In this document: positions 1 to 41,672 of the stretch, piece after piece | Numbering within the stretch: the first letter of the stretch is position 1 | Layout: each line of letters starts with the position of its first letter | NCBI GenBank assembly: GCA_016716765.1 | Contig: JADJVA010000009.1 | Coordinates: 71,013 to 135,012, forward strand | Length of the DNA: 64,000 nucleotides | DNA from: Bdellovibrionales bacterium | GTDB lineage: Bacteria > Bdellovibrionota > Bdellovibrionia > Bdellovibrionales > UBA1609 | Reading direction: 5' to 3' | Translations under genes and position numbers: made by a program | The notes under the pieces: generated by a model | Told to the model about the DNA's origin: nothing | Databases searched by the model: none | Seen by the model: the letters and a program-made list of their open reading frames with translations, nothing else

Positions 1-179
1 ACTTAACCGCTTAATTCTTAATTCGTATTTGCTGTTCAGCTCCTCATCGACAAGGCCCGCCAGATATTGCTCATAGGTCAATCTGCCCTTTTCCGCAGCC
101 CGCGAGGCTTCGTTATAGCCTTCGGCCATGGTTGCAAATTCAGCTGTTTTAGGCCATTGCTGAGTTCTTCATTTGTCAT
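1..179 (-). pseudogene. istB: IS21-family IstB helper ATPase, N-terminal fragment (gene runs off the window edge) with an apparent 1-nt frame break near 135
   Basis: ATG at 179..177 overlaps the istA stop (ATGA at 176-179). That frame reads MTNEELSNGLKQLNL and stops after 33 codons. The adjacent frame continues ATMAEGYNEASRAAEKGRLTYEQYLAGLVDEELNSKYELRIKRLS to position 1. Joined, they give the usual IstB N-terminus (LKxLxLxxMAE..). An internal ATG at 129 could alternatively start a shorter product. Confidence 0.55.
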
Positions 180-1672
180 CCGGTTACTCCTTGTTGGTTG
201 GGAATGAGTTGATCATAATCTTTTAAATTTGGACTTATCGGGGTTTGGCCAAACCGTGTGCTGAGATCGATTACCAATGCCTCGGGTCTGCGCTCAACAA
301 GAAGCAGGTCTTTGACTTCCATGAAGATGTTCATCACGCCCACAGGCTGGCCAAGAACAATTTCTAGCGCACATTGGATCTCGCTTAACGGCGTGTGATG
401 GATGAGATTCATTATACGTAAAAACTCGCGTTCGGATGCCCCAGGAAGGTTCTCTTGGCTTTTGAGCCGACGATAAAGATCCCTGAATATTTTCTCTGGG
501 AATAAAATTTCACGGTGTTTCCATCGGATCATCGCTTGTGGCTTGCGGAGAAGGCTTTTTAAAATATGCTCAAGCTTTATGCTATGCTCACCCTCAGACA
601 TTCGAGGATGGACAACGATGACATCACTGCCCTTGCGCGTGATTCGTGTCTCAAAAGCACCAGCCACGACTCGGCACTCTAATCCGATCCATGCATCCGC
701 AACTGAGTAAGTGGTCTTGGCGACGCGAACCGTGCCATGCGGAGACGCACGAGTCTCTTCCACGCGGCAAAGCACATCCTCGTCTCGCGGCAACAGCGAT
801 CTCAACTGACCACACTCTGTTTTCAGCAGTTCAGTGACGGCTTCGCTTTGCTCCTGTTCACCGAAGGCCTCGAGCTCGACGTTGAGGTGGGAAAAATCCC
901 GGAACCTGATCCCATGAACATTTACGTGATTCCTAAATCTCCTCGACCAGGTTTGAATGTCGCGCTCAACATCACCTTTTTCATTGCCTCGGCCTGGAGA
1001 GCAGGGAAGAACTCCAAAATCGTAATATTTGATCGCCCTATTAAACGCATCCGTGTAGTCGCGGCCTCCGTCTTTTTTCACCCGCTTCACGCATGGACTT
1101 AAGTTGTCGATTCGAATATTTTTTGTTTGACCACCAATTTTTTCAAAAAATGAATGGACGCCATCCATGAAACATTCATAGGTCTTGTGTGGGAAGCCCT
1201 TGATGACGCAAGCGTTAGAAAACGGCAAAGTACCAAAATGTAAGTGCGCAATCACCGGGCCCGATAAAAATGGCAGTTCGATTGATTCTTTAAAATCAAA
1301 CTGTGCCTGCTCGCCAGGGGTATACTCTTGCTCAAAAAAGCGCTCTTTTGGCTTTCCCTCGCACCACGATTTCATTCGCCTTTGAATCGTGCGTTCGCTA
1401 CCCAAATAGCCTAGCGGACGAATCAGCGCATAGATCTCGCCGGCCGAAAGTTCCGGGGCGATAACGAGCTTCCCCCGAACAAAACCCTCAAACTCGGCAA
1501 AGAAATCCTGCCTTGAGGGAGTGGATCTTGGTCGATAGCATGGGGGAGCTGTCGATTTGAGGTACTTGCGCACAGTCTTTCGATCAAGATCAAGCTCCCG
1601 CGCAATCTTGGACTTGCTCTCGCCAAGGTGATCAAGAGCTCTTATTTTATGAAAAATATCCATTGTTATCAC
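176..1672 (-). CDS. istA: IS21-family transposase IstA
   Basis: 498-aa ORF with N-terminal HTH (ESKSKIARELDLDRKTVRKYLK) and a long catalytic core. It has a 4-nt ATGA overlap with a downstream istB, the diagnostic IS21 two-gene layout. Confidence 0.9.
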   Translation of the reverse strand: MITMDIFHKIRALDHLGESKSKIARELDLDRKTVRKYLKSTAPPCYRPRSTPSRQDFFAEFEGFVRGKLVIAPELSAGEIYALIRPLGYLGSERTIQRRMKSWCEGKPKERFFEQEYTPGEQAQFDFKESIELPFLSGPVIAHLHFGTLPFSNACVIKGFPHKTYECFMDGVHSFFEKIGGQTKNIRIDNLSPCVKRVKKDGGRDYTDAFNRAIKYYDFGVLPCSPGRGNEKGDVERDIQTWSRRFRNHVNVHGIRFRDFSHLNVELEAFGEQEQSEAVTELLKTECGQLRSLLPRDEDVLCRVEETRASPHGTVRVAKTTYSVADAWIGLECRVVAGAFETRITRKGSDVIVVHPRMSEGEHSIKLEHILKSLLRKPQAMIRWKHREILFPEKIFRDLYRRLKSQENLPGASEREFLRIMNLIHHTPLSEIQCALEIVLGQPVGVMNIFMEVKDLLLVERRPEALVIDLSTRFGQTPISPNLKDYDQLIPNQQGVTG

Positions 1673-3453: not shown

Positions 3454-3555
3454 GTACCCTCCGTTTAAGAAATTTATTGGGAAGATTTGAACCTGGTAGA
3501 AAGGCCCTGTCAACCTCAACCGGAGACCCCTAATATCTCATCTCGGTCATTGTTA

Positions 3556-4257
3556 TTATGGTGCTTTTAACAGTGCTAACAATAGCTCTGGTCGATTGTT
3601 TCGAGGATTATTGACGAGATTGGATATTTCTCGTGCTTCCAGCCAATCAGACGGGCATGGATTAAGGAGATTTTTCAGCGCCAAGATGTCATGGTTATGG
3701 GGATCAAGCCAATCTTTCTCCCCCAATCGAGAAAGTATAGCCGGCATACGGTTGTGTATCTTGGCTACAAGTGAATTAGCTGACGTAGTGATAATCGAAA
3801 ATGAAAATACCTCTTCGTTAGTGGTCTTCGATTTCCAACACTCCCACACTCCTGCTAAACTCATGATGGGATCGCCCTTCAAAGATATTGCGTAAGGTCG
3901 CTTCGGCCCCCCATCGGTGCGTTGCCACTCAAAGAAACCAGAGAATGGTACAATGCACCGACGACGTAGGAAGGGCTCTTTAAAGCTGCGCTTCTCGTCA
4001 ATATCCTCAGCCTTGGCATTTATAAGGCTATACTTATCGGCCGCCTTAACATCTTTCGCCCAAAAAGGGACAAGGCCCCATCGAAAAAAACCAATTCGTA
4101 ATTCGCCATCTTCTCGAAAAACGATGGGTGATTTCTGAGTCGGCGAAAGATTGTAGTTAGGAACAAAGCCGTTCAAAGGGTTATTCTTGGCCTTCTCATT
4201 TAAATAACGAAGACGGAGTTCCTCTTCAGAATAGGTTTGATAGGCTCGACCGCACAT
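3556..4257 (-). CDS. yedK: SOS-response-associated peptidase (SRAP/YedK/HMCES family, abasic-site processing)
   Basis: Begins MCGRAYQ (catalytic Cys2 of the SRAP family), about 230 aa. Motifs FFRWGLVPFWAK and FFEW are typical of DUF159/SRAP. Confidence 0.85.
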   Translation of the reverse strand: MCGRAYQTYSEEELRLRYLNEKAKNNPLNGFVPNYNLSPTQKSPIVFREDGELRIGFFRWGLVPFWAKDVKAADKYSLINAKAEDIDEKRSFKEPFLRRRCIVPFSGFFEWQRTDGGPKRPYAISLKGDPIMSLAGVWECWKSKTTNEEVFSFSIITTSANSLVAKIHNRMPAILSRLGEKDWLDPHNHDILALKNLLNPCPSDWLEAREISNLVNNPRNNRPELLLALLKAP

Positions 4258-4427
4258 ATCAGAAGCATAATAGAATTTCCGTGTCCAAAGGCATTGATAA
4301 TTTTGCTAAATGGCATTTTTTTAAAATGATTCCGTATTGACGCGGCATAGAATTCAAAATAGAGCAAAATTCGAAGTTCCCTCACATCTGAACTCACTTG
4401 GATGTTGTGCATCTGGGATAAAAGGTC

Positions 4428-5597
4428 TTGCAAAAGATGTGGACCCTCTTGAAACTTATCTTTTGTATTGATCTCAATCGACTCAAAAAAAGCGGGGGGC
4501 TGGTGCGCATTCACGCAAAGCAATTATTGTATGTATTTTTTTTGAGCTGCTTTAGCTTTCAGAGTAATTGCAATAAAGCGGCTCTAGCTAAGGCAAAGAG
4601 AGAGACCAAGCTCGAATCGCAGCCCAAAGTGCTTCGGATATTGAGCGACAGAACTCAATCTCACCTCTTACCTATCTTTGAACGGTATAAGGAGCGAACG
4701 GGAATTGAGATACAATCCCTATTTGTCGAGAAAGGTCTTCTTGCTAGATTACAGACTTCGCCAAGAGAAGCAGACATCGTGATCACGAAAGATGCCGATT
4801 TGATGGAGATTGCAAAAGAAAAACGCATCATATCTTCTTTCCGCTCAGATTATATCGAAAACATAGTTCCAAAAGAATACAGGGACTCAGAAAACTTCTT
4901 TTTTTCTGATTCGTATAGGGGACGGGTTATTTTTTATTCAAAGGATCGGGTTAAGGCGAGCGACTTGGTATCCTACAAGGATTTGGCTCATTCAAAATGG
5001 AAGAAAAAAATATGTATTCGCTCCGGTTATGATGATTATAATTTAAATTTGTTTGCACAGTGGCTGATAATTTACGGTCGGAAAGAGGGAAAGGAATTAA
5101 TCCAGGGCCTTCATGATAATCTTGCACTCAATCCTTCGGGAAATGATCGTCAGCAAATTAGAAATATCTTGGAAAAGAAATGCGATCTTGCATTAGCCAA
5201 TTCCTATTACATGGGAATCATGCTCAATACTACTGACCAAAGGAGTTGGGGGTTGTCATCGAAGGTTTTCTTTCCAGACCAAAAGCTATCGGGTACCGCC
5301 ATTCTTCGCTCTGGTCTAGCCCTAACAAAAAATATCGAGAATCGGGAAGCATCGATAAAATTTTTAGAATATATGGTTAGTCCAGAGGTTCAGAAACAGA
5401 CCTCTGAACTTACCTTTGCCTATCCAGTGACAAATGCGGTTGGTTTGCCAAAAGAGAATGTTCAGCTTGGAGAGGGCCAAGTTGAGGTGAAAGGTGGAGT
5501 TTTCAAAATTAATAATGTACCTCTTTCCGAGATTGCAAAGCTGAGACAGGAAGTTGCCCAATTTCTTGATCAGATTCAATTTGATAAAGCCCCATAG
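4428..5597 (+). CDS. ABC transporter periplasmic substrate-binding protein, FbpA/AfuA-like Fe(III) type
   Basis: Family-1 SBP features resembling ferric-binding protein: RVIFYSKDRV, SKWKKKICIRS, and ANSYYMG with the paired Tyr. The true start is probably GTG 4503 (G-rich RBS), giving the lipoprotein-like signal FFLSCFSFQSNC. Confidence 0.7.
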   Translation: MQKMWTLLKLIFCIDLNRLKKSGGLVRIHAKQLLYVFFLSCFSFQSNCNKAALAKAKRETKLESQPKVLRILSDRTQSHLLPIFERYKERTGIEIQSLFVEKGLLARLQTSPREADIVITKDADLMEIAKEKRIISSFRSDYIENIVPKEYRDSENFFFSDSYRGRVIFYSKDRVKASDLVSYKDLAHSKWKKKICIRSGYDDYNLNLFAQWLIIYGRKEGKELIQGLHDNLALNPSGNDRQQIRNILEKKCDLALANSYYMGIMLNTTDQRSWGLSSKVFFPDQKLSGTAILRSGLALTKNIENREASIKFLEYMVSPEVQKQTSELTFAYPVTNAVGLPKENVQLGEGQVEVKGGVFKINNVPLSEIAKLRQEVAQFLDQIQFDKAP

Positions 5598-7072
5598 TGT
5601 TTAGTTTTAACTTTTATTCCAGTCTTCTTGACGGTCTCTTAAATAGCTCGATTATATTGGCCATCACCTTTTCTGTCGTTGTGCCTCTGGCCTATTTTAA
5701 TACAAGAAATATTGTAAAATACAAAATACCCTATAGCCGAATGCTTGGTGTTCTTTCGATTTCTCTTCTCATTGTTCCAAATTTTATCTTTGCCAGTATC
5801 TATCGAGAATTTTTTTCGACGACTGGACCTCTAGAAGATGTTTTGTCCAGCGAGGTGATTTTACCATTGGGCAATGTCCCGATCAATTCTGTTGTTGGGT
5901 ATTCATTTTGTCTGATGCTTTCAATTTACCCTCTTTCCTATGCCGTTTTCAAGCCACTTCAAATTGCTCACCTGAGTTCCAACGAGTTAATAGGCCAAAC
6001 GCTATCTCTAAGTAAATGGACAGTCTTTCGTAAAATAACTTTTCCCTTCTTCACTCCCGCAATTCTATTTATAGCCATAATGATAATTAGTTCCATTCTT
6101 GGCGATTTCACCTCGGCGCAGGTCCTTGGCGTGCGGACATTGTGTACGTTCCTATTTAATTCATGGTTTTCGACTTACGACTATAACACGCTTATTCGCT
6201 ATTCATTGGTTGTACTGGGCTTAATATTTTTGGGCTTTATGTATTTTTTAATTAAGAGTTTGATCCGTCGCCGTTCTTTGCATTTTTACAATGTTAGTGC
6301 GAGGTCAAGAATTTCAATCTCTGGATCAAGAAAATATTTGCTCCTATTTCTCATTTGTCTCCCTCTCATTTTCGGGCTGGTCCTACCTGGCTCAGTTGTT
6401 CTAAAGTGGGCAATAGAGTCCATCGCCCGTGTTAATCTGAATCGTCTCTATGAATTCACCGGAGAGAGTGTCTTTATCTCCGTCACAGTTACATTCATTT
6501 CTATTCTTATCTCTTTTCTGCTGATTCTCTACCAAAGAAAAGGCCATCTAGGCCGAACTGGAGAGACGTTAATTTGGATTCTATCGGCGGGCTATGTCAT
6601 TCCATCTCTTAGTTTATCATTTCTAATTGTTTGGTTTTTAGGGGATACCTCAATTGCGGTGAACTCAAAGCTACCAAATCTTGTTCTTATTGCCCAAGTT
6701 ATAAAATTTGTTGGTCCTGCGGTGATTATCTTGAATTTGAGAAGTCACCAGATACCTCTGCAATACGAAATGACGTTGAGTTTATTTAGAGTTGGGCCCT
6801 TAGGGAGATTCAAAAACCTCTTTGTGCCGCTTTTTGGAATGTCCGCGACACTTGCCTCAAGCTTTGTTTTTATCGAGTCACTTCGTGAAGTTACTTCTCC
6901 TCTGATCTTAAGGCCATTTACGTACTCAACATTATCTGTCGAAATATTCACCTTGATCTCGCGAAATTTGATCAAGGAGAGCTCCTTGCTCATTATCTGT
7001 CTATTTATCTGCTGTATTTATCCAATGAATTTGCTTATTCGATCCTTAGGAAATGAAAACTATGAGAAGTGA
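5597..7072 (+). CDS. ABC transporter permease, two-module FbpB-like
   Basis: 491-aa polytopic protein of the size and duplicated layout of iron(III) ABC permeases. GTG start overlaps the SBP stop by 1 nt (TAGTG). Confidence 0.7.
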   Translation: MFSFNFYSSLLDGLLNSSIILAITFSVVVPLAYFNTRNIVKYKIPYSRMLGVLSISLLIVPNFIFASIYREFFSTTGPLEDVLSSEVILPLGNVPINSVVGYSFCLMLSIYPLSYAVFKPLQIAHLSSNELIGQTLSLSKWTVFRKITFPFFTPAILFIAIMIISSILGDFTSAQVLGVRTLCTFLFNSWFSTYDYNTLIRYSLVVLGLIFLGFMYFLIKSLIRRRSLHFYNVSARSRISISGSRKYLLLFLICLPLIFGLVLPGSVVLKWAIESIARVNLNRLYEFTGESVFISVTVTFISILISFLLILYQRKGHLGRTGETLIWILSAGYVIPSLSLSFLIVWFLGDTSIAVNSKLPNLVLIAQVIKFVGPAVIILNLRSHQIPLQYEMTLSLFRVGPLGRFKNLFVPLFGMSATLASSFVFIESLREVTSPLILRPFTYSTLSVEIFTLISRNLIKESSLLIICLFICCIYPMNLLIRSLGNENYEK

Positions 7073-8120
7073 TATTTTTAGGGTTGGGGATATCGTAAAA
7101 ACATATAGAAAAAAGTCCGTCCTCGACCATGTCTCATTTGAGATGAACTCAGACGAGTTGATTTCAATTCTAGGGCCAAGCGGTTCTGGCAAATCAACTC
7201 TGCTAAAAATACTGGCTGGCATTGAGAGTCCTGATAGCGGGCAGTTTTCATTCGTTAAAAGCGAAATTGACCAAATCCCCTATTTTGATAACTCAAAGAA
7301 TTTCGTTCCGATTGGTCTACGTGGAATTATGTACGTTTTTCAGGAGCCATCCTTGTTTCCCCATTTGACGGTACAAGAGAATCTAAGTCTTGGATTGGTC
7401 GCCCCTAAGTCTCCAGAATCAAAGAAATGGATAGAAGAAATTATTTCATTCTTTCTCATAGGAAATCGCCTTTCTCGGTATCCCCATGAGTTGTCCGGAG
7501 GTGAGCAGCAGAGGGTTGTGGTGGCCAGGTCATTGGTCGGCAAGCCGCTCATGTTATTGCTCGATGAGCCGTTCAGTAATTTGGATGATCATCTCAGGTA
7601 TAAGATTCTCATCGACTTAAAGTCCTTTCTATCAAAAAATGGAATCGCCGCTTGCCTCGTCACGCACAACCAAAATGAAGCATTTCTATTCTCATCTCGA
7701 ATTCTTATTTTGAAAAACGGAAAATTAATTCAACAGGGATCTCCCGTTGAATTATATACTCACCCAAAAAATGCAGATGCTGCTCAGATTGTTGGCCTGA
7801 GCAATCTATTGACAACAGAGGAATTTGGGATGCTTAATACATCAATTGAGATTCCTCGCTTGCCAAAGGGTGAGATATTTTTATTTAGACCAGAGGACTT
7901 GATAGCATCTGTATTCCCAATTAATGAAGGGAAATCACATGAGGTGGAATCGCATTGGTTTTTTGACAATAGGAGCATGGTTTCAGTTGTACTCCCTACT
8001 GGAAAGCAAATTTGGTGCTGTCTGAGTGGCACAACCATCACTTCCAGTTCTCACCGAAAGGTTTGCATTGAGATAAAGAAGTATCTCCAGATACAGGAAA
8101 GTTCTTATGAAGATACTTAA
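7053..8120 (+). CDS. ABC transporter ATP-binding protein, FbpC/PotA-like with C-terminal regulatory domain
   Basis: Walker A GPSGSGKST, signature LSGGEQQRV, Walker B LLLDEPFS. Overlaps the permease gene by 20 nt. Confidence 0.85.
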   Translation: MKTMRSDIFRVGDIVKTYRKKSVLDHVSFEMNSDELISILGPSGSGKSTLLKILAGIESPDSGQFSFVKSEIDQIPYFDNSKNFVPIGLRGIMYVFQEPSLFPHLTVQENLSLGLVAPKSPESKKWIEEIISFFLIGNRLSRYPHELSGGEQQRVVVARSLVGKPLMLLLDEPFSNLDDHLRYKILIDLKSFLSKNGIAACLVTHNQNEAFLFSSRILILKNGKLIQQGSPVELYTHPKNADAAQIVGLSNLLTTEEFGMLNTSIEIPRLPKGEIFLFRPEDLIASVFPINEGKSHEVESHWFFDNRSMVSVVLPTGKQIWCCLSGTTITSSSHRKVCIEIKKYLQIQESSYEDT

Positions 8121-8340
8121 ATTGAAGAGAGGCTTTACAACAAATTCAAGTGGAACCAATGAATGGGTTTCGACACAGAATAGCAATTCAAACAATCTAC
8201 CGGTAAATTATACTTGGAATAATTTAGGTAAGTTGGGCATGCTCGTTGTTCTTGTTTCTATTCTTATTTTTGTTGATCAACTTGTTCGGAATATTTTATC
8301 ATTTAGGAAAACAGAATCTTCTAATGAAGGCGAGCAGTGA
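8107..8340 (+). CDS. 77-aa single-pass membrane peptide, candidate substrate/partner of the downstream radical SAM enzyme
   Basis: ATG with AGGAAA 7 nt upstream. Overlaps the ATPase stop by 14 nt, and its own stop overlaps the rSAM start (GTGA). Polar N/S/T/W-rich head (GFTTNSSGTNEWVSTQNSNSNNLPVNYTWNN), then a TM helix (LGMLVVLVSILIFV). Confidence 0.5.
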   Translation: MKILKLKRGFTTNSSGTNEWVSTQNSNSNNLPVNYTWNNLGKLGMLVVLVSILIFVDQLVRNILSFRKTESSNEGEQ

Positions 8341-9638
8341 CCTCCAATTTTCAATCAACTTTGATTCTCAGACAAGAGTACTTTGGGGGAATTCTTTTTA
8401 ATACCAAAGACGCAACCTATATGGAATTGGATCATGAAGCTTTTGATATGCTACAAAAGTATCTAACCCAAACTCCGATGCAAATGATCAAAGATATATT
8501 GGCCCTGAAAACTGAAGGAATGAAATTGTTTCGAGAGCTACTGGTAAGACATCTTCCGAGAGGTCACCAGAAAATTAAGCTCATAAGGAATGCGAAGTCT
8601 GATTTTTTGTCCGCACCCACACTTGTCGATCTCCAGGTCACTAATCAATGTTTTATGGATTGCCCGCATTGCTATGCTTCGTCGCATCCAGCGGGCCTTC
8701 ATGCCGATTTCGAATCGCTGAAGTCCATCATCAGTGATTGTTCTCGTATGGGTGTTTTCCAAATAGCGATAGGAGGCGGTGAACCTCTATTGCACCCTAG
8801 AATTTCAGAAATCCTCTATCTTATTCGGGAAAATGGAATAGTACCAAATCTTACTACCACTGGGCACAATTTAACATTGGAGAACCTCAAGGCCATAAAG
8901 GAAACTTGTGGAGCTGTCGCACTTAGTTTAGAGGGCCAAGGAAGGAATTTTTCAATTCATAGAAAAACTGGATGGGATTTCTTTCTTAAATCACTGAATA
9001 AATTGAATCATGCGAAGATTCCGGTCGTTTTTCAGGTTACTCTGAGTAAAGAAAATTTGGATAATTTGCCTGACATAGTGAATTTTGCTTTAGAGGAAAG
9101 AGATCTCTACGGCGTCATTTTTTTGGCCTACAAACCTGTGGGACGCGGAAAATTCTACAATCACTCTTTAAGTTCGGTCGATTCTGTTATGCTTCATGCT
9201 CAGCTGAAAGATACTTTTCTGAGACTCTCTAAACACACACGTGTTGGTTACGATTGCTGCTTAACTCCTGGGATTGTGGGAATCGAAGAGGATTTTGGCA
9301 TGGTGGAATTTGAACAACTGGAGGGATGTTCGGCCACGCGCAGTAGCCTTGGTCTAACAAACGATTTTGATGTTTTGCCATGCACATTTTTGCCTGAACT
9401 CAAGTTTGGAAATTTGAAAACGCAATCCTTGTCGGAGGTTTGGTTTAACTCAAGAACGGTTCGATTTCGAAATCGGCTCATCGGTCAAGCCGACAAGAAA
9501 CCAGTTTGCAGAGGATGTGACAGCAAGGCTTCATGTCTTGGTGGCTGTCCGATTTGGGATTTGGTCAATTGCAAAAACAATTACCTCGACCATAAGCCAC
9601 CAGCTGCGGAAAGTAACTTGGAGCTAATTGAATCCTAA
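8337..9638 (+). CDS. radical SAM / SPASM-domain enzyme with an N-terminal PqqD/RRE-like extension
   Basis: CxxxCxxC cluster CFMDCPHC. GGGEPLL SAM-binding motif. C-terminal auxiliary-cluster cysteines (DCC.., EGCSATR, LPCTF, CRGCDSKASCLGGC). About 95 aa precede the cluster and contain LILRQEYFGGILFNTKDATYMELD, reminiscent of peptide-recognition (PqqD-like) domains. Confidence 0.8.
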   Translation: MTSNFQSTLILRQEYFGGILFNTKDATYMELDHEAFDMLQKYLTQTPMQMIKDILALKTEGMKLFRELLVRHLPRGHQKIKLIRNAKSDFLSAPTLVDLQVTNQCFMDCPHCYASSHPAGLHADFESLKSIISDCSRMGVFQIAIGGGEPLLHPRISEILYLIRENGIVPNLTTTGHNLTLENLKAIKETCGAVALSLEGQGRNFSIHRKTGWDFFLKSLNKLNHAKIPVVFQVTLSKENLDNLPDIVNFALEERDLYGVIFLAYKPVGRGKFYNHSLSSVDSVMLHAQLKDTFLRLSKHTRVGYDCCLTPGIVGIEEDFGMVEFEQLEGCSATRSSLGLTNDFDVLPCTFLPELKFGNLKTQSLSEVWFNSRTVRFRNRLIGQADKKPVCRGCDSKASCLGGCPIWDLVNCKNNYLDHKPPAAESNLELIES

Positions 9639-9641
9639 GGC

Positions 9642-10898
9642 CTATTTCGTATTTTCGAGCCACTGATCCACTAGTTCCTTTTCTAACCATTCGGCTCGGT
9701 AAATTTGAATAGCCTGGTCAGTCTTGGAAACTCCAACTGGAACCTGCCACTTCCACACGACATCCCCCCATGAATCCACTTCTATGATTGCACTTCTGTT
9801 GCAACCGTAGGAGATGAGAGTGTTCCCATTTTTTAATCTCTGAACAGAACCGTAGTGTTTGCAAGACATTTTTCCAATTGGATTTTCCGTAAAATTCCAA
9901 ACGACATCTCCGGTGAGAGGGTTAATTTCAATGACATGAGAAAGTATTAGACGATCTGGTATCTGATCGGCATTAACAAAAAGGAGAATATTGTTGTTTT
10001 CAAGCCAACGGGCCGAATGAACTCCATGGCCACTTCTTACACGGTAGACCTTGACGGGCATTCGGGTTAACCGATCTACAATTAAAACCAATCCACTCAT
10101 CGCATCCGACAGAAGAATATTCCCCTCTCTAAATTCAGTGTGGTTCTCCATGAGGGAATTCTTTGGTATAGATTCAATCTTATTAAAATGAGTGAATCCG
10201 ATTGATTCGTGATTTTTGTTTCCGTCTCCCTTTTTGTATTTATGTGGGCCATTTAATGGGTGATTGATCAGCCCAGCTATTTCGCGCAAGTAATCAATGT
10301 CTCTCCAACGAAAAGTTTCCTTTCCGTCTTTGTCTATTTCAACGGCGATATCAATTCGCTCATATTGTTTCCCCCTTTTTCTGGAATCTAAACTGAAATA
10401 CAGGATTGATTGCTCGAGATACGACACTGACATATCGTGGGTCACAACTGAGGGGACCATCCACTCTTTTCGAAACGGGGTAAATTTGGAAATTCCGATT
10501 TCTTCGTGTGTTAAAAATGAAACGGCCTGACCGCCTTTTAGAAGATTGCAATATGAGCCAGGTATTTTGGCTACTGTTCTTCCGTCCATTTTAATAAGAG
10601 AACATCCCATTTCAAAGGTAATCACCAAAATATATCCGTCGTCGTAGAAGATACTATTTTGTTTTAGCATCAATACACCCTTGGCTCTTAATTGTGCCAA
10701 GGTTCCATTGTCTGTCTCATAGTGATCAAAGGATTGCAGCGCGACAGCTGCAACAATGAAAAAAAGTCCCACAATAATTGTTTTTATTTTTGGCAAAGAC
10801 GGTTTCTGAATTGAGAACATATGTATCATTTGAGTTAAGAGGCGGACTGCCAATTTGGCAGAAATTGTTCTCGGCTGACCTTGCTTTTGAAAGTCCAA
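9642..10898 (-). CDS. arylsulfotransferase (ASST)-like beta-propeller protein, membrane-anchored or secreted
   Basis: Repeated motifs typical of the ASST family: LKNGNTLISYG..AIIEVDSWGDVVWKW, VIEINPLTGDVVWNF, HSARWLENNNILLF. N-terminal hydrophobic anchor IIVGLFFIVAAVAL. The start may be ATG 10829 rather than 10898. Confidence 0.55.
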   Translation of the reverse strand: MDFQKQGQPRTISAKLAVRLLTQMIHMFSIQKPSLPKIKTIIVGLFFIVAAVALQSFDHYETDNGTLAQLRAKGVLMLKQNSIFYDDGYILVITFEMGCSLIKMDGRTVAKIPGSYCNLLKGGQAVSFLTHEEIGISKFTPFRKEWMVPSVVTHDMSVSYLEQSILYFSLDSRKRGKQYERIDIAVEIDKDGKETFRWRDIDYLREIAGLINHPLNGPHKYKKGDGNKNHESIGFTHFNKIESIPKNSLMENHTEFREGNILLSDAMSGLVLIVDRLTRMPVKVYRVRSGHGVHSARWLENNNILLFVNADQIPDRLILSHVIEINPLTGDVVWNFTENPIGKMSCKHYGSVQRLKNGNTLISYGCNRSAIIEVDSWGDVVWKWQVPVGVSKTDQAIQIYRAEWLEKELVDQWLENTK

Positions 10899-11827
10899 AT
10901 AGCGAAATCGATATAGTAGTGAACCATCATAAAGCCAACCATCAAATCGATGGGGTGAAACTGCCGTTTTTCCATCAAGAGAAAGCAGGCGTAGGTTGCC
11001 AATCCACTCAGAGCTATCAGCGGGAGCATGAAACCACCAAATTTAATTGCCCATTTTCCAAATTCAAAAGGGCAACTAATTTTATTCATTTTCATCATGA
11101 ACACCAAACCAAGGTAAGCGATGCTATGATGAGCATTGAAGACGTAGAATTGGGAATATTTCGGAAGATCTGCGGCGAACGGCCATGGTATGGTAACGAT
11201 TAGCGCCGTTGCAAAAAAAAGAAAGAATGGCAAAGAGCAGACACCCTTGCCAATCAGGTAAGCGAGATAAATGACAGAAGAAATTGCGACAATCAGACTG
11301 AAAATACTGGAAATATTCTGGGCAACTGGAGAACCTCCCCAGGCATCAACCGCCACACGCGCAGCTATCAATAGACAAAAAATTAATTTCTCTACATATC
11401 GTTCTAGATTAAGAGGAGTGGTTTCGGACTGCTGTCGATAGATCTGAAGAATCATATAATTTTGCATGCTCAGGTGAATGTTAGCAACGATCAAGGAGAA
11501 CTTAAAAAGAGATACCCATTGCCAGCTATGCCTTCCCTCTATGAAAAATATCGGAATCGTAAATCCAAGAAAGAGAACGATGGGAAGAATTAAGCGAAGA
11601 GCATAGTTCGTCATGGCAAGTCTGATCCGGTCCGCATGATCTTTTATCATGACAAATGTTGCCAAAAAATGAGGAAGTCGAACAAGGGGACCGTAAACAA
11701 AAGCTAAAAATGAGAGATCTCCAATGGTAGATCCAAATTGGCTAACAATGATGGCCGACGGAATCAGTATCCAAAAGCTAGAAAAGAAAATCAAATCAAA
11801 CCTCGGTGCCAATATCCAAGATTTCAT
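10835..11827 (-). CDS. polytopic membrane protein with four conserved His motifs (paralog P1)
   Basis: 330 aa, multiple TM helices. Motifs LPHFLAT, IHLSMQ, AHHSIAY and VHYYIDFAIW are shared with the ORFs at 31831-32946 and 33024-34280. Confidence 0.65.
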   Translation of the reverse strand: MKSWILAPRFDLIFFSSFWILIPSAIIVSQFGSTIGDLSFLAFVYGPLVRLPHFLATFVMIKDHADRIRLAMTNYALRLILPIVLFLGFTIPIFFIEGRHSWQWVSLFKFSLIVANIHLSMQNYMILQIYRQQSETTPLNLERYVEKLIFCLLIAARVAVDAWGGSPVAQNISSIFSLIVAISSVIYLAYLIGKGVCSLPFFLFFATALIVTIPWPFAADLPKYSQFYVFNAHHSIAYLGLVFMMKMNKISCPFEFGKWAIKFGGFMLPLIALSGLATYACFLLMEKRQFHPIDLMVGFMMVHYYIDFAIWTFKSKVSREQFLPNWQSAS

Positions 11828-12030
11828 CTCAAGATGACTCCATTTAGTGACAACTTTAATGTTGCCTTAAGAAGTGCAATTGTTGAAAGTAAAAAAATAA
11901 TACATTGCATTATTTGGATTGAGTGATTTTGATCCTTTGCTTTTCATCGGAGTTGAATCCGCCTTTTGCCCTGAGATACAATTCATCGTGGGCTGTGTAG
12001 TTTAACTGTGTAGTGGGGTGGATGGTGGGA

Positions 12031-13239
12031 ATGAATCGTCGTCAAGCTTTGTATGCAATTACTGGCGGGCTGGCATTGAGCAGCTCAGTGGGGATTGGGA
12101 TACGGTTGTTTCGACGCCAGTTTTCTCGGTCGGGTGAGGCCTCAGCCATTACACTGGGTAGCGACAGAGCGACGAAAGATACTTTTCTAACTGAGGCTTT
12201 TCTCGACTCTCATAGAATACAACAAGTTGAATTGCCAATGAAGGAGGGACATTCAGCCCTATGTTTGCCAGAGAGAAAACTGGTGTGCATCGGTCACAAA
12301 AGTACCACCAGCCTGTTTATAGATAGTGATAATAAGGTGATAAAGAAAATTGAGGCTCCTAAGGGATATATGTATGGGGGCCATGGGCTTGTCTTTCTAA
12401 ATCAAAAGCAAGTTTTACTCACTGCACATGCTGAGATTGCTGCTTCAGAAAAAGATGCTGGTTTAATACAAGTCTTTTCGCTGGATAAAATGGAACTCAT
12501 TCAGCAGTTTTCCAGCCATGGCATCCATCCACATGAAATCAGATTATTGCCAGATGAAAAATCGTATGTAGTCACTCATTATGGCATGTTATCGGAGGAG
12601 AATAATCCGAACCCTCAACACTTCACTTTTGGCGTTTTGAATCCGAAACTCAGTGTTTTTTCAGTTGAAACAAATTTGCCAATTGTCCATCATCCTGTGA
12701 CTCCAAGCTATGCTATCTTTACCCACATGGACGTCGGACCTGATGGGTTGGTCTATGGTGTAAATAATCAATATTGGCACACGGATTTTTTCAAAAAAAA
12801 CCGTCCGGAACATGAATTTGGCGATAATGATTTCAATCTAGATCCTCTTGAGGAAATAAAAGATCAAGTAGCTGTTCCACTTCCCTTGGTCGTTATTGAT
12901 CCAGCAACGGGCAAGCAAAAGGACATATTCACATCATCAAAAACTCAGCGGAGATCTCAATCAGTAGCAACAAATTTTCTGATGAAAAAGGTAATTGCAA
13001 CTTATCCTTATTCACATACGATTTTGATCGTTAATCAAGATTTTTCAGCCTCAACTGTCGATACTCGGTCTTTTGGAATCTCCGGAGTAAGGGGCGTCTG
13101 CGAAATTCCCTTTACAAGCAAGATCGTCATTACTGGAACAGAGGAAAATATCGCAGTGATTGATTTGAAATCCATGGAAAGAATCCAGTTTTTCCCTGCT
13201 AAATTGAATGCGTCCATTCATGTTTCAATTCGCACGTAA
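12031..13239 (+). CDS. DUF1513-like periplasmic beta-propeller protein with Tat signal
   Basis: Start moved to ATG 12031, giving MNRRQALYAITGGLALSSSVG (twin-arginine signal). GGHGLVF and HGIHPHEIRLLPD resemble DUF1513 signatures as I recall them. Confidence 0.5.
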   Translation: MNRRQALYAITGGLALSSSVGIGIRLFRRQFSRSGEASAITLGSDRATKDTFLTEAFLDSHRIQQVELPMKEGHSALCLPERKLVCIGHKSTTSLFIDSDNKVIKKIEAPKGYMYGGHGLVFLNQKQVLLTAHAEIAASEKDAGLIQVFSLDKMELIQQFSSHGIHPHEIRLLPDEKSYVVTHYGMLSEENNPNPQHFTFGVLNPKLSVFSVETNLPIVHHPVTPSYAIFTHMDVGPDGLVYGVNNQYWHTDFFKKNRPEHEFGDNDFNLDPLEEIKDQVAVPLPLVVIDPATGKQKDIFTSSKTQRRSQSVATNFLMKKVIATYPYSHTILIVNQDFSASTVDTRSFGISGVRGVCEIPFTSKIVITGTEENIAVIDLKSMERIQFFPAKLNASIHVSIRT

Positions 13240-14042: not shown

Positions 14043-16154
14043 ATGAGCACAATGAAACTTCGAACCTCTTTTTTCTCTAGGCAATCTGCCATAGCTTTAA
14101 TTGCGTTGTGTGGGATATATTTCTTTTATGCAAACTGTGGATTTCGATCCAATCGTTTTCTAGGAACGGCTGACGACGACAGCAATTATACCTATACAGG
14201 GGCCAGAACTATATTGGACAAACAAACAATTGTTATTCATCCGTTTGATCCAGGAGGGGGTGAAGACGAGCCTGAAGCCTTTGCTCGTGAGTTGGTTAAG
14301 ACATTTGGTGATTCCTCAAACTGGACAGGGATGAATTTGGGTTTTTCTCTTCTTTTGAGTCCGATGCAGGAAAAGGATGAGGCAATGGTCCTGCGTATCG
14401 ATAAAGCCTTTAAAGTGGCTCAGGAATTGAAGATTCGTCTTCTCATTCATATTAATCATGAGTGGCTCTTTGGCTTTTTTCCATCTTATGATCCTCAGTA
14501 TGGAAATCTAATGATTCAAACCATCACGGGCGTGAAAGCTCTCGGTTTTAATGATTATAAAAGAGTCGATAGCTCTTCTGAAATTGTGAAGCATGTTGAA
14601 TGGAAGAGTTGGACAGAGCCATATTCCAATTATCACCTCTTTTGGGGATCTGAAAGTATTCAGCCACCAAAAATCAATTACAAGAGTCCCTACATTCGCA
14701 CTCTTTTGACCCAAAAATCGATTGTGATAAAGGAGGCGATCGCGCAAGGATTGGCCAAATATATGTCCGAAGATAATTCATTGTTTTTGGGGCTTGACCT
14801 CGGGTGGGAAACATCGCTTGATGACAATGATAGCAACGACGGCTTAGGCCCAATCGGGTACAGGGCACTTATTGATTCCGGCTATGGCCCCGGTCAGCTC
14901 AATGACCAGGAAGTAAATGAATTCTTGGGAAAGACGGCAAAGGAGTACATTGATTTTGCTGCTTCTCTCTATGCATCACTATATATTCCAAAAGAAAAAA
15001 TGTTTTCTCATTACTTGCTTCTTGATAGGGATAGACATTTTCCTGGATACCGATACGAGCGATGGATTCGAAATCCATCTCATCTGGCAAAAGAGCAATC
15101 CATGATGATTCCGGGATTTAGCATGTACTGTACCACTGTTGACTGCGCGGAAATAAAGAATGAACTTCAGTCTGATGCTCCAAGCGATTGGGTGGTAACT
15201 GAGAGTGGTCCAAGTCTACTTCCAATTTTGATTAATGGATTTCCGGAATTGAACATTCGACCTCCTCGCTTCATGACACTTTATGCTTTTGGAGCGAACA
15301 TAAAAAATGATAGAGAGATGATTAAAACTATTTCTGATTTGTTGCGAAGAGCCCCACCAAAACCACCAGAGGAGGCTCCTGGTCTCGCAATTGGGTATAT
15401 CGATGGAGTTGGCGAAGGTCCTAACGGCACAGTCGGAGTAGGTGGTTGGGCCTGTGTTCCGAAGAATGCATTGAGTATAAAGATAAGAATCTACGCAGGA
15501 GGAGCTGCAAATCAAGGAGGTACCTTGATTGCTGAAACGCTGGCAGATAGTGTGCGAGATGATGCTGGAGTGCAGTCTCTCTGTGAGACGAATTTCACAA
15601 GATATGGTTTTGCTTATCTCATCAGTCCTCAAGATAGATTGATCCATGCAAATAAAAAAATCTATGTTCATGGTGTTTCGACGGACTTCGGTGGTAGGAA
15701 TGAAGAACTCAAAAATTCAGGAAGGTTTTCGGTCATAGCACCTGTGGAACCACCGCCAACCATTCAACCATTAGTTCCTGGTCCGGCAATCGGGTATATC
15801 GATGGAGTTGGCGAAGGTCCTAACGGCACAGTCGGAGTAGGTGGTTGGGCCTGTGTTCCGAAGAATGCATTGAGCATAAAGATAAGAATCTACGCAGGAG
15901 GAGCTGCAAATCAAGGTGGTACCTTGATTGCTGAAACGCTTGCAGATCATGTGCGAGATGATGCTGGAGTAAAGTCTCTCTGCCAGACGAATTTCACGAA
16001 ATATGGTTTTGCTTATCTCATCAGCCCTCAAGACAGACTGATCCATGCCAATAAGAAAATCTATGTTCATGGTGTTTCGGCGGACTTCGGTGGTAGCAAT
16101 GAACTGCTTGGACATTCTGGAGATTTTTCAGTGCCCCCGACCGTCATGCACTAG
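14043..16154 (+). CDS. probable lipoprotein with unknown N-terminal domain and two tandem C-terminal beta-sandwich-like modules
   Basis: Signal/lipobox-like IALCGIYFFYANCG. The C-terminus holds two 133-aa copies of GYIDGVGEGPNGTVGVGGWACVPKNALSIKIRIYAGG... Confidence 0.6.
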   Translation: MSTMKLRTSFFSRQSAIALIALCGIYFFYANCGFRSNRFLGTADDDSNYTYTGARTILDKQTIVIHPFDPGGGEDEPEAFARELVKTFGDSSNWTGMNLGFSLLLSPMQEKDEAMVLRIDKAFKVAQELKIRLLIHINHEWLFGFFPSYDPQYGNLMIQTITGVKALGFNDYKRVDSSSEIVKHVEWKSWTEPYSNYHLFWGSESIQPPKINYKSPYIRTLLTQKSIVIKEAIAQGLAKYMSEDNSLFLGLDLGWETSLDDNDSNDGLGPIGYRALIDSGYGPGQLNDQEVNEFLGKTAKEYIDFAASLYASLYIPKEKMFSHYLLLDRDRHFPGYRYERWIRNPSHLAKEQSMMIPGFSMYCTTVDCAEIKNELQSDAPSDWVVTESGPSLLPILINGFPELNIRPPRFMTLYAFGANIKNDREMIKTISDLLRRAPPKPPEEAPGLAIGYIDGVGEGPNGTVGVGGWACVPKNALSIKIRIYAGGAANQGGTLIAETLADSVRDDAGVQSLCETNFTRYGFAYLISPQDRLIHANKKIYVHGVSTDFGGRNEELKNSGRFSVIAPVEPPPTIQPLVPGPAIGYIDGVGEGPNGTVGVGGWACVPKNALSIKIRIYAGGAANQGGTLIAETLADHVRDDAGVKSLCQTNFTKYGFAYLISPQDRLIHANKKIYVHGVSADFGGSNELLGHSGDFSVPPTVMH
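15381..16154 (+). repeat. in-frame 399-bp tandem duplication (second copy slightly shorter, ends at the stop codon)
   Basis: CCTGG at 15378 recurs at 15777 (offset 399 = 133 codons). The first ~160 nt of the two copies differ at only a few positions. The encoded copies share a 53-aa identical run. Confidence 0.9.
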
Positions 16155-17589: not shown

Positions 17590-17595
17590 TTCGGA

Positions 17596-19106
<1,511 letters not shown>

Positions 19107-38109: not shown

Positions 38110-38152
38110 ATCCGACATTGTTAACTGTAAATCTGCCGGGCCAGATTGGGTT

Positions 38153-39517: not shown

Positions 39518-39518
39518 T

Positions 39519-39896
39519 TTACTGACCTTTCACTTTCACTACCCTACGACCTGATTTTTGTACCGAGGGCGCCTTTTTCTGCTGAAAAGTAGCCTCCGCC
39601 AATATCATTTCAAAAATTCCACGAATAAAACTTTTTCGAAGACCCATTTTTGCCCCAAGCTGAGAGCGGTTATGCAAGACCTCGACCTCCCGCTGATTCT
39701 GGACAATGCTGCGACGACCCTGCCTTTTCAATTGACCGACTTTTGCTACGATCCCGAATCTCCGCCGCAAAGCTACCAAAATTTGCCGATCAGCCTTGTC
39801 TATGTCCCTCCGCAAAAGCTGCAGCCGTCGATCAAACGAATCCTTTGAAGCCTTAGAGGTTTTAAGATTTTTTCTCCTTTTACGAGCCTCACTCAT
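39519..39896 (-). CDS. chorismate mutase (AroQ class)
   Basis: [33 protein letters not shown]. Small helical protein. ATGA overlap with tyrA. Confidence 0.75.
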
Positions 39897-41631: not shown

Positions 41632-41672
41632 TTTCTCGCCTCACTTGCATATCCTCAACCAGCTTTCTTCTA

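Follow-up and report, generated by a model that had tools for sequence, protein, structure and literature searches.

We propose that a 77-residue membrane protein and a radical SAM (rSAM)/SPASM enzyme, encoded next to each other behind a ferric-iron ABC importer in a Bdellovibrionales bacterium, form a dedicated substrate–enzyme pair, and that the modified, membrane-tethered head of the small protein works with the transporter. We put the probability of this reading at about one half. The conserved unit is the pair of small protein and enzyme, not the five-gene block to which both belong here. The window analyzed is a stretch of 64,000 nucleotides of contig JADJVA010000009.1, and all coordinates refer to positions within it.

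The block covers positions 4428–9638 on the plus strand. An earlier note on this DNA had described five genes overlapping at every junction, and both the list of open reading frames and a direct reading of the junction sequences bear this out, with each frame at exactly the coordinates it gave. In 5' to 3' order, the genes encode an FbpA-class Fe(III)-binding protein (4428–5597), a permease (5597–7072), an ATPase (7053–8120), the 77-aa protein (8107–8340) and the rSAM/SPASM enzyme (8337–9638). The first junction reads CCATAGTGTTT, in which the G at 5597 is common to TAG and GTG. The permease and ATPase genes overlap by 20 nt, from the ATG at 7053 to the TGA ending at 7072; the overlap would be 11 nt if the real ATPase start were the ATG at 7062, as in the gene call of a 96%-identical relative (L026). 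The ATPase and small-protein genes share 14 nt (ATG at 8107, TAA ending at 8120), and the small-protein and enzyme genes meet in GTGA at 8337–8340.

Judged from sequence, the first three genes encode an FbpABC-type Fe(III) ABC importer, as the earlier note had held. The substrate-binding protein (SBP) belongs to the FbpA/FutA ferric-iron class by its Pfam SBP_bac_6 match, by residue conservation and by phmmer searches of the PDB, which matched 1q35 (FbpA, E 4.6e-49), 1y4t (E 2.9e-47), 2pt1 and 2voz. Tyr142, Tyr198 and Tyr199, together with Arg10, Arg101 and Arg103 (1q35 numbering), are kept in 25 of 25 cassette SBPs. In the 1q35 structure, the three tyrosines bind iron and the arginines bind the synergistic anion. 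The SBP is probably a lipoprotein, with LLYVFFLSC near its N-terminus, and its true start probably lies downstream of 4428; the gene call of the 96% relative places it at 4437. The permease is of the fused double-domain, FbpB-like kind and contains about 10–12 hydrophobic segments, ten of them with a Kyte-Doolittle (KD) value above 1.6. Its copy in the window is too divergent for Pfam detection, but tblastn finds permease orthologues at the same position in other loci, and these match BPD_transp_1. The ATPase is of the PotA/FbpC/CysA type (Pfam ABC_tran, 116 bits) with a C-terminal regulatory, TOBE-like extension. TOBE_2 was found in its orthologues, and many importer ATPases of NCBIfam score about 170–210 bits against it, each under its own cutoff. 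Membership in the FbpABC type is thus met for the SBP, by its tyrosine Fe(III) site and anion arginines, and for the permease and ATPase.

The enzyme (433 aa) belongs to an uncharacterized orthologous family, according to Pfam, homologue searches and an AF2 model. It contains both CFMDCPHC and CRGCDSKASCLGGC. Pfam searches place it in the radical SAM superfamily (PF04055, 64.9 bits against a cutoff of 29.5) and among SPASM proteins (PF13186, 39.2 bits against 21.5, residues 331–395). The CX3CX2C cluster motif in CFMDCPHC (C105, C109 and C112; 8649–8672) is invariant in 28 of 28 family members. In the SPASM region (residues 307–412; 9255–9572), delimited by the Pfam match and by invariant columns, the cysteines at 307, 308, 331, 349, 391, 394, 400, 404 and 412 are invariant, a set that by sequence suffices for two putative auxiliary [4Fe-4S] clusters; the defining pattern of the subfamily is Cx9-15Gx4C ... 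Cx2Cx5Cx3C ... C. The homologue search listed 440 proteins at E ≤ 1e-5; of the best 120, all but the 96% relative show 40–50% identity with at least 88% of the query covered, and orthologues with the small ORF upstream show 42–50%.

The N-terminus of the enzyme (residues about 1–75; 8337–8561) is predicted to form an RRE-like domain of PqqD fold. The AF2 model (mean pLDDT 82.5, pTM 0.86) places three β-strands (8–14, 17–22 and 27–31) before three helices (33–44, 47–55 and 60–72), with pLDDT 62–90 across the block, and this β3α3 order meets the RRE fold. R12, E14, G17, G18 and D32 are invariant. The top Foldseek matches of the whole model are SuiB (E 7e-19, 437 columns), SkfB and CteB, and SuiB also ranks first in a profile search of the PDB, aligned from profile position 7. 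Sequence support for the domain alone is weak: its profile has residues 25–57 of SuiB as the only natural PDB match (E 0.006), and Pfam PqqD (PF05402) gives no match to the enzyme at E ≤ 0.01. The PqqD-type element that had been proposed therefore stands by fold (SuiB, SkfB, CteB) and fails by the PF05402 search. As modeled, the architecture is RRE–rSAM–SPASM, as in peptide maturases.

No NCBIfam family is matched above its cutoff (best 83 bits, against cutoffs of 380–650). The cofactor-biosynthesis clade of AhbD and NirJ, named beforehand as a refuting outcome, does not claim the enzyme: NirJ2 scores 83 against 500, AhbD 70 against 500 and NirJ 68 against 515, an RRE is present, and no haem-pathway genes occur among the locus neighbors. 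Sactipeptide and ranthipeptide maturases were likewise rejected, with StsB at 69.9 against 625, SkfB at 43 against 300, and no cysteine in the head of 38 unique small-protein sequences.

The small ORF is annotated as a gene in public records under the name "hypothetical protein", and a Shine-Dalgarno-like AGGAAA ends 6 nt 5' of its ATG at 8107. It is a real gene, far beyond a chance ORF, because its head motif recurs beside rSAM orthologues in all assessable related loci but one. A head-motif ORF lies directly upstream of an rSAM orthologue in about 40 nonredundant loci from at least seven phyla. Where at least 600 nt are available upstream of the rSAM gene, this holds for 46 of 47 loci, and the ORF usually overlaps the rSAM start; the sole exception, L059, is eroded and keeps the ATPase and rSAM genes. 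Lack of conservation of the short ORF beside rSAM homologues would have counted against the pairing, and the neighborhood survey found the opposite. A DNA scan with the head motif alone detected 28 loci in 185,579 species genomes, against about 0.01 expected by chance on our own estimate, and an rSAM gene is present in every locus that extends beyond the ORF.

The small protein is bitopic and is presumed to be the rSAM substrate. It measures 77 aa in the window and 72–183 aa in other family members. The family shares the head pattern M[KR]IL[RK]xRRG[FY]TTNSSxxxE[WYF]; next come a disordered linker that varies between members, a single transmembrane (TM) helix and a juxtamembrane tail of basic character. 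The layout described earlier, a basic start, a polar segment and a C-terminal hydrophobic helix, is indeed seen. The conserved element, G[FY]TTNSSxxxE[WYF], belongs to the extreme N-terminus. In the window, the head (residues 1–23, MKILKLKRGFTTNSSGTNEWVST; 8107–8175) divides into a basic leader of β-strand-like character (residues 1–8) and a near-invariant core that runs from G9-[FY]10-T-T-N-S-S15 to E19-[WYF]20. In column counts over 38 unique sequences, M1, T11 and S14 are kept in 38 and E19 in 37. The detection pattern itself demanded G9, T12, N13 and S15, and only M1, T11, S14, E19, F/Y10 and W/Y/F20 were free to vary. Looser searches added only two head variants, E19Q (L072) and T11S plus S14C (L064); the latter carries a cysteine. 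No lysine is conserved in the core. Of about 40 sequences, which span at least seven phyla, only two thus have any change at the small polar residues T11, T12, N13, S14, S15 and E19, while the remainder of the protein drifts freely. Such near-invariance is in keeping with a constraint set by catalysis or by the product, not by docking alone.

The linker (residues 24–41; 8176–8229) is rich in N and S in the window; across loci, it varies from 18 to 128 aa, with a P+A+T+S+G fraction of 0.28 to 0.86. Two aromatic motifs had been singled out in this protein. NEW overlaps the conserved E19-W20. NYTWNN lies in the linker and is not conserved: the 96% relative has Y35H, and the whole segment varies in other taxa. 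The TM helix (residues 42–60, KLGMLVVLVSILIFVDQLV; 8230–8286) has a mean KD of 2.19 over 19 residues, and the mean is 1.7–2.6 across all homologues. By eye, a semiconserved Asn precedes it ([GS]NxxL). A basic juxtamembrane segment and an acidic C-terminal tail follow (RNILSFRKTESSNEGEQ, then the stop codon; 8287–8340), with ER[ILV][ILV]RR...DDE as the homologous counterpart. In all homologues, the 15 residues after the helix contain 3–8 K/R, and 0–3 K/R precede it. From this asymmetry, the positive-inside rule places the head outside the cell, a topology that is inferred. We note a conflict here: the head lacks a signal peptide and carries 4–5 positive charges, and the enzyme can only be in the cytoplasm.

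Two known precursor types were considered for the small protein and rejected. A classical RiPP precursor has an N-terminal leader and a C-terminal core that is cut out by proteolysis and exported. Here the conserved part is the first 23 residues, followed by linker, TM helix and charged tail, and the module has no protease or exporter gene. A Tat-dependent tail-anchored family combines a twin-arginine signal peptide (RRxFLK plus a hydrophobic h-region) with a C-terminal TM helix (PMC10924467). This type does not fit either: RRG[FY] precedes the polar TTNSSxxxE, and there is no h-region.

In the mechanism that we propose, the RRE of the enzyme would first bind, in the cytoplasm, the basic and β-strand-prone start of the small protein (MKILRxRR). 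The radical SAM core would then abstract a hydrogen within the G-[FY]-T-T-N-S-S-x3-E-[WYF] core, the inferred substrate. The type of chemistry is also inferred. The likeliest product would be an intramolecular C–C or C–O cross-link that joins the aromatic side chain of residue 10 or residue 20 to an aliphatic carbon in Thr, Asn or Ser, similar to those of SuiB (Lys–Trp), PqqE (Glu–Tyr) and the three-residue cyclophane formers; this is a guess, and no modification has been observed. A thioether is excluded because the head has no Cys. The modified head would presumably not be released, and the flexible linker would keep it tethered to the TM helix, whose conserved juxtamembrane motif may dock at a membrane transporter. 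In the window and in most genomes, this would be the co-encoded FbpABC-type Fe(III) importer, and the mature protein could take part in ferric-iron uptake as a subunit with an accessory, regulatory or iron-handling role, although any role in iron transport is an inference. It is possible, but to us rather doubtful, that the installed modification makes the tethered head a functional element of the transporter, either as a ligand that passes Fe(III) or as a switch that reports Fe–S, SAM or oxygen status. The switch idea stems from the requirement of the enzyme for three [4Fe-4S] clusters, through which its activity could gate iron import.

The link to transport is strong. In 30 loci (24 nonredundant) across phyla, the complete SBP–permease–ATPase set precedes the pair with its order unchanged, its genes overlapping or a short distance apart and its flanks unrelated. 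The enzyme also co-diverges with the transporter: pairwise rSAM distances correlate with those of the SBP (r = 0.90) and the ATPase (r = 0.87; Mantel p ≤ 5e-4). Six of about 40 nonredundant loci have no adjacent ABC genes, and four of these, of Patescibacteria type, have one orthologous MFS transporter in their place, adjacent or overlapping, which argues that the association is with membrane transport as such. Several observations count against the proposed reading. The pair lacks adjacent ABC genes in L001 and L023, in L008 an unrelated gene separates it from them, and in L059 the small ORF is missing. No consistent Fur box precedes the cassettes, and usable expression evidence is lacking.

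These distributions also bear on an alternative that we consider improbable, namely, that the pair has an iron-unrelated function in the membrane or envelope and stands behind fbpABC only through shared inheritance of a mobile five-gene block. It would accommodate L001 and L023, where the pair has neither adjacent ABC genes nor any transporter nearby, the unknown substrate of the four MFS transporters, and the lack of a consistent Fur box upstream of the cassettes. The rare but phylogenetically scattered occurrence of the 28 motif-scan loci suggests horizontal transfer and would suit it as well. However, a mobile block does not readily account for the constant order and tight spacing of the 24 nonredundant loci amid unrelated flanks, for the co-divergence of the enzyme with the SBP and ATPase, or for the frequent replacement of missing ABC genes by another transporter.

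There is also a small chance that the head is modified, cut off by a housekeeping protease and active extracellularly, for instance as a peptide metallophore that is re-imported as its iron complex through the FbpA-type importer. The RiPP-maturase architecture of the enzyme and the proximity of the pair to an iron importer are compatible with such a released product. So is the SBP, whose residues we checked: as in 1q35, a three-Tyr FbpA-class SBP requires an exogenous ligand or synergistic anion for complete iron coordination. Yet no protease or peptide-exporter gene was found in the conserved module, and conservation extends to the TM helix and juxtamembrane motif, for which a follower peptide destined to be discarded would have no use. 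Moreover, the conserved part occupies the extreme N-terminus, the usual place of RiPP leaders, and the head offers no obvious iron ligands unless the chemistry makes them.

Strict co-occurrence, the long flexible tether, the persistence of the ATPase and rSAM genes without the small ORF in L059 and the precedent of rSAM enzymes in iron-acquisition operons such as that of HutW (PMC10035031) would also suit a head that merely binds the RRE and holds the enzyme at the transporter, where, on the model of the ChuW/HutW enzymes of haem-uptake operons, the target of the enzyme would be a transporter subunit, a small molecule or an iron chelate that has been imported, but this is hard to credit, since six near-invariant small polar residues and two aromatic positions exceed the needs of a docking strand, the nearest structural relatives all modify their bound peptide, and the SBP residues suit naked Fe(III) plus an anion, not a chelate.

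The substrate–enzyme reading, with a tethered head that works with the transporter, hints at a further layer of iron-transport biology built on a previously undescribed gene pair. Fe(III) handling around FbpABC-type importers and the post-translational tuning of their activity are poorly understood, and a partner made by radical chemistry would be a new component of a textbook transporter. If the modified head were a functional element, it would define a new class of modification-dependent accessory subunit, for ABC importers and Patescibacteria MFS carriers alike. For the radical SAM/RiPP field, the pair offers an uncharacterized enzyme family with a sharply defined, Cys-free presumed substrate motif. 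We know of no precedent for a precursor with an N-terminal conserved segment tethered to the membrane. Together, these features make new chemistry plausible. Because the cassette is present in three cultured strains (Thiohalocapsa halophila DSM 6210, Thiohalocapsa sp. ML1 and Halochromatium glycolicum DSM 11080), the question is directly testable. The earlier note had recognized no described system of this kind, and our literature search likewise found no published tethered peptide and rSAM enzyme co-encoded with a ferric importer.

Among known systems, SuiB/StrB with its substrate SuiA/StrA (streptide, Lys–Trp) provides the best structural and profile match. It shares the RRE, the radical SAM barrel and a SPASM domain with two auxiliary clusters, and the substrate gene lies directly upstream in both systems. 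However, identity to SuiB is only about 18%, and the KGDGW-type core is absent here. Streptide-type maturases cross-link the Lys and Trp of a K-x-x-x-W core, but position 20 of the head may be W, Y or F, and its core has no conserved Lys. In contrast to streptide, the substrate is membrane-anchored and conserved at its N-terminus, there is no exporter or protease gene, and the partner is an importer. PqqE/PqqA and MftC/MftA are likewise SPASM enzymes acting on a dedicated small peptide, which yields cofactors. PqqE joins Glu to Tyr, and the head studied here has a near-invariant Glu beside an aromatic residue. PqqE is among the best NCBIfam matches, but its TIGR02109 score of 83.4 bits is far from the cutoff of 381 (265 for MftC), and it was rejected as an assignment; no pqq genes, pqqB-D/F included, occur at any locus, nor do mftB/D/E/F. 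The substrate here is also inferred to remain tethered and not to be C-terminally processed.

The three-residue cyclophane formers (3-CyFE), which make triceptides, have the RRE–rSAM–SPASM architecture and, within an Ω1-X2-X3 motif, join the aromatic residue Ω1 to the β-carbon of X3. The [FY]10-T11-T12 of the head formally fits this motif, but this is a resemblance only; triceptide precursors are usually soluble, with repeated motifs in a C-terminal core. On the transporter side, FbpABC, HitABC and FutABC have in common with the present importer the fused double-domain permease, the C-terminal regulatory domain of the ATPase and the iron and anion residues of the SBP. To our knowledge, the described Fbp, Hit and Fut operons have three genes, and none adds to these a small membrane protein as a fourth component together with a radical SAM enzyme. 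KdpF, AcrZ, MgtR/MgtS and MntS are short bitopic modulators of transporters; their genes lie with or close to that of the transporter, and binding to it within the membrane is how they act. We know of none among them that needs an enzyme-installed modification or in which a long tether bears a conserved soluble head.

A radical SAM enzyme encoded within an iron-acquisition transport operon is known from ChuW/HutW (PMC10035031). These are HemN-like methyltransferases that act on haem, without an RRE, a SPASM domain or a peptide partner. A final comparison is with QhpD/QhpC and with anSME, which is among the Foldseek matches of our enzyme, and its sulfatases. The cross-links of QhpC need Cys, which is absent here, as is the anSME motif C/S-x-P/A-x-R, and QhpC and the sulfatases are exported via recognizable signals. 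As in our proposal, a SPASM enzyme in these systems equips a protein with a functional modification, and the protein then works elsewhere.

Five genes on the forward strand of the window overlap at every junction: those for a solute-binding protein (SBP, 4428-5597), a permease (5597-7072), an ABC ATPase (7053-8120), a small protein of 77 residues (8107-8340) and a radical SAM (rSAM)/SPASM enzyme (8337-9638). This arrangement, taken from the ORF calls and from a reading of each junction, was correct as written in the earlier note. A single G at 5597 is common to the TAG stop of the SBP gene and the GTG start of the permease gene. The ATPase ATG lies at 7053 and the permease TGA ends at 7072 (an overlap of 20 nt), the ATG of the small ORF lies at 8107 and the ATPase TAA ends at 8120 (14 nt), and the last junction is GTGA at 8337-8340. 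The gene 3' of the cassette (9642-10898) is in convergent orientation. Consensus scans for promoters and terminators between 4100 and 10000 found matches at chance level only. No Fur box recurred consistently when the 500 nt 5' of the SBP match were scanned in 31 loci, L014 (p = 0.005) and L022 (p = 0.02) being the sole outliers. The window derives from a wastewater Bdellovibrionales MAG. Metatranscriptome runs were uninformative on expression, as all contigs that contain the locus there are 20-37 kb long, with about 94-95% identity, and are most likely DNA carry-over. The contigs, found in runs X7, X8 and X10 (all labelled metatranscriptomic) for window positions 3500-11000, point to a second strain, roughly 5% diverged, that is common in wastewater samples.

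The SBP matched solute-binding-protein families in Pfam and NCBIfam weakly. Among solved structures it matched Mannheimia FbpA (1q35, E 4.6e-49) and Campylobacter cFbpA (1y4t, E 2.9e-47), with Synechocystis FutA1 and FutA2 also among the matches. When aligned to 1q35, Tyr142, Tyr198, Tyr199, Arg10, Arg101 and Arg103 are kept in 25 of 25 SBPs from related cassettes; we take the three tyrosines to be the iron-binding residues of 1q35 and the remaining ones to hold the synergistic anion. The permease has about ten strongly hydrophobic segments and its orthologues match BPD_transp_1; the third protein is an importer-type ABC ATPase. The designation "Fe(III) ABC importer", which had been read from the sequence alone, is therefore justified.

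Several features surround the cassette. A 498-aa transposase-like ORF (176-1672, reverse strand) shows a weak match to the Mu-transposase C-terminal domain, and G+C is higher in the first 2 kb of the window (0.49) than in the 10 kb that follow (about 0.41); a mobile element may thus border the region. An SRAP gene (SOS-response-associated peptidase, YedK-like; 3556-4257, reverse strand) is the immediate 5' neighbour of the cassette and points away from it. L026, a 96%-identical relative, has this gene too; in other taxa it is not beside the cassette. Downstream, at 9642-13239 (11306-14904 in L026), are three genes, encoding a weak arylsulfotransferase-like β-propeller (reverse), a 330-aa polytopic membrane protein of no family (reverse) and a DUF1513 protein with an RRQAL Tat-like start (forward). 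None of the three was found by tblastn in 25 genome-scan loci. The DUF1513 gene is a single ORF of 408 aa in the window and two ORFs (276 and 142 aa) in L026, pointing to a frameshift or assembly error in the one or the other. Further along, a 703-aa protein without a Pfam match (14043-16154, forward) has, towards its C-terminus, a pair of almost identical repeats of about 110 aa with the sequence PGxAIGYIDGVGEGPNGTVGVGGWACVPKNALSIKIRIYAGGAANQGGTLIAETLAD... Tandem genes at 16192-19029 (reverse) encode proteins of 465 aa, a Pfam Beta_elim_lyase of the tryptophanase/tyrosine phenol-lyase type, and 477 aa, whose L026 counterpart is labelled Beta_elim_lyase in Pfam. An SbmA/BacA-like half-transporter (ABC_membrane_2 and ABC_tran; 22318-23973, reverse) belongs to a family known for peptide uptake and is, by its position, unrelated to the cassette. 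The region 38000-52000 has a G+C of 0.47-0.50 and a strongly negative GC skew, compared with 0.40-0.44 elsewhere.

The small ORF is a genuine and conserved gene. In a search of 185,579 species genomes guided by a family alignment of the rSAM enzyme, 24 loci with enzyme orthologues were identified; the single rSAM protein as query had returned no loci, and the family alignment was needed. By tblastn and motif searches, an ORF starting M[KR]IL[RK]xRRG[FY]TTNSS was found directly 5' of the enzyme gene in all 24, with one apparent exception that proved to be a contig break, its other half being L037. In the reverse test the query was the head motif alone, written as a degenerate DNA pattern (the head being residues 1-23 of the small protein), for which we estimate about 0.01 chance matches. 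It recovered 28 loci in the same genomes: 23 on the contigs of the profile-guided scan, the one missing half, and four new ones, all four with the enzyme gene adjoining the ORF. A metagenome scan added 21 loci; apart from L059 and L069, each of them shows the ORF, or as much of it as can be seen, where the contig reaches far enough. The earlier note had made its reading depend on whether a short ORF is kept beside rSAM homologues; the head ORF is kept in 46 of the 47 loci whose upstream sequence spans at least 600 nt (about 40 non-redundant). Gene callers behind the public records also call it, under the sole name "hypothetical protein". Protein searches did not give a family census: library-wide phmmer hits to a 30-aa head were mainly low-complexity S/T/N-repeat proteins, with just five true members of the family among them, and a head profile run against a 5.8-billion-protein set retrieved five small "hypothetical" proteins and no others. 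The system is rare (about 28 of 185,579 species genomes) yet widely scattered, with carriers in Myxococcota, Spirochaetota, Alpha-, Beta- and Gammaproteobacteria, Verrucomicrobiota/Lentisphaerae, Planctomycetota, Bdellovibrionota and Patescibacteria.

The five genes have different neighbours in each taxon examined and thus form a self-contained module. In 30 loci (24 non-redundant) the SBP, permease and ATPase genes are all found upstream, with their order unchanged. The pairwise distances among the enzymes track those among the SBPs (r = 0.90) and those among the ATPases (r = 0.87; Mantel p <= 5e-4). The invariant core is nevertheless the pair of small protein and enzyme, not the five genes. 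The pair occurs without nearby ABC genes in Silvanigrella (L023) and in a Haliangium MAG (L001). In a Polyangiaceae locus, L008, a 761-aa ORF (5224-7509, reverse), read from its sequence as a putative monomeric-type isocitrate dehydrogenase, lies between the ATPase gene and the small ORF on the opposite strand; the insertion shows that the pair is separable from the ABC genes. ABC genes are also missing from the loci of four MAGs, two of Patescibacteria and two unclassified, which have instead an adjacent or overlapping MFS_1 transporter gene (L034 5277-6461; L048 1512-2687; L047 2185-3327, reverse; L050 3658-4809). The products form a conserved MFS_1 subfamily with 46-49% mutual identity and have no NCBIfam family above cutoff. 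In three of these four loci a further membrane protein is near the pair (DUF401 in L034 and L050, weakly CitMHS-like in L048). The substitution of an MFS carrier for the ABC system in Patescibacteria argues for a transporter in general as the partner, whatever its fold, and supports the reading proposed below. L059 (2442-7853) is an eroded variant, with the ATPase and an rSAM orthologue of 49% identity and without SBP, permease or small ORF. Its gene order is Tat-signal FAD/ALO-type oxidase, ABC ATPase, rSAM orthologue and response-regulator-TPR protein; in Silvanigrella (L023), too, the rSAM gene is followed by one for a response-regulator-TPR protein.

The conserved head of the small protein was analyzed in 38 unique sequences. 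G9, T12, N13 and S15 were required by the search pattern, and their counts of 38/38 are therefore uninformative alone. Among the free positions, M1, T11 and S14 are each present in 38/38 and E19 in 37/38; an aromatic residue occupies position 10 (F or Y) and position 20 (W, Y or F), and positions 22-23 are mostly PP. Looser searches revealed only two departures: E19Q in L072, and T11S with S14C in L064, whose head is MKVIRLRRGFSTNCSGTNEF. The head is followed by a linker of 18-128 residues, without sequence conservation and usually rich in P/A/T/S/G, then by a single hydrophobic helix (mean KD 1.7-2.6), often preceded by [GS]NxxL, and by a basic stretch, often ER[ILV][ILV]RR, before an acidic end. 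The window copy is the shortest among the loci. Of the two aromatic motifs singled out initially, NEW corresponds to the conserved E19-W20, whereas NYTWNN falls in the variable linker and differs in the 96% relative. The small ORFs of the window and this relative have six codon differences, three synonymous and three non-synonymous, too few and too similar a pair to measure selection.

Both the Radical_SAM and SPASM domains of the enzyme score above the Pfam cutoffs. The earlier note would have been refuted by an enzyme of the AhbD/NirJ clade, and this is not what we found. ScmE, PqqE and NirJ2 score 83 bits, and AhbD, MftC, StsB and WgkB about 70 bits, all well under the NCBIfam cutoffs of 265-650. 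With no family near its cutoff, the enzyme belongs to no curated clade, and particularly not to AhbD/NirJ. Its many full-length homologues (40-50% identity) all have generic names. Across an alignment of 28 homologues, the CX3CX2C cysteines, nine cysteines of the SPASM region and an N-terminal signature of R12, E14, G17, G18 and D32 are invariant. In the AlphaFold2 model (pLDDT 82.5, pTM 0.86), residues 8-72 form three strands followed by three helices, the predicted fold of a PqqD-type peptide-recognition domain (RRE).

We propose that the enzyme modifies the head of the small protein, a reading supported by its near-invariant small polar residues, which point to a catalytic or product constraint. 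The RRE would bind the basic N-terminal strand of the small protein, the radical SAM core would modify the G9-W20 core of the head, and the modified head would stay on its tether and act at a transporter, here the ferric importer. This enzyme-substrate reading as a whole is the most likely one, although the mechanism beyond modification of the head by the enzyme is unproven. A released natural product is argued against by the lack of a protease or exporter and by the conservation of the transmembrane and juxtamembrane region. Reading the C-terminus as a sortase/exosortase-type sorting signal was rejected, because the protein lacks an N-terminal signal peptide and ends in an additional acidic tail; a Tat signal was rejected because RRG[FY] is not followed by an h-region. 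Thioether chemistry is excluded, as the head contains no Cys.

The evidence on the topology of the tethered head is contradictory. There are 0-3 K/R residues before the helix and 3-8 after it, from which the positive-inside rule predicts a cytoplasmic C-terminus with the head outside; S/T- or P/A-rich linkers fit this prediction. Against it stand the absence of a signal peptide, the missing Tat h-region behind RRG[FY], the four or five positive charges in the head and the need for the enzyme to act in the cytoplasm. The head may be modified first and exported later, possibly once residues 1-8 have been removed; alternatively, the N-terminus may lie inside, against the positive-inside rule, or the helix may pack into the transporter. 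The physiological role is a matter for speculation, the candidates being hand-over of iron, gating, and a switch that reports on Fe-S status.

The earlier note recognized no described system of this kind. A full-text literature search, which did not cover subscription journals, found no description of the module; this is absence of evidence only. NCBIfam, Pfam and the source annotations provide no name for the small protein or the enzyme. The cautious interpretation given initially thus holds and can be sharpened: we conclude that this is an undescribed RRE-rSAM-SPASM family with a dedicated, inferred membrane-tethered substrate, usually within an FbpABC ferric-iron importer operon. The RiPP-maturase architecture, suspected earlier from a PqqD-type N-terminus, is supported by the predicted structure and only faintly by sequence. 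Pfam PqqD does not match the enzyme, and the N-terminal domain profile searched against the PDB found, among natural proteins, only the SuiB RRE strands, weakly (E 0.006). A family-profile search of the PDB gave SuiB as the top match, aligned from profile position 7. Foldseek with the model likewise ranked SuiB first (E 7e-19, 437 aligned columns), followed by SkfB and CteB, with anSME and PqqE at lower ranks. The chemistry proposed for the head rests solely on analogy to SuiB, PqqE and the cyclophane formers. SuiB, SkfB and CteB are peptide maturases that carry an RRE, as does the predicted architecture of the present enzyme.
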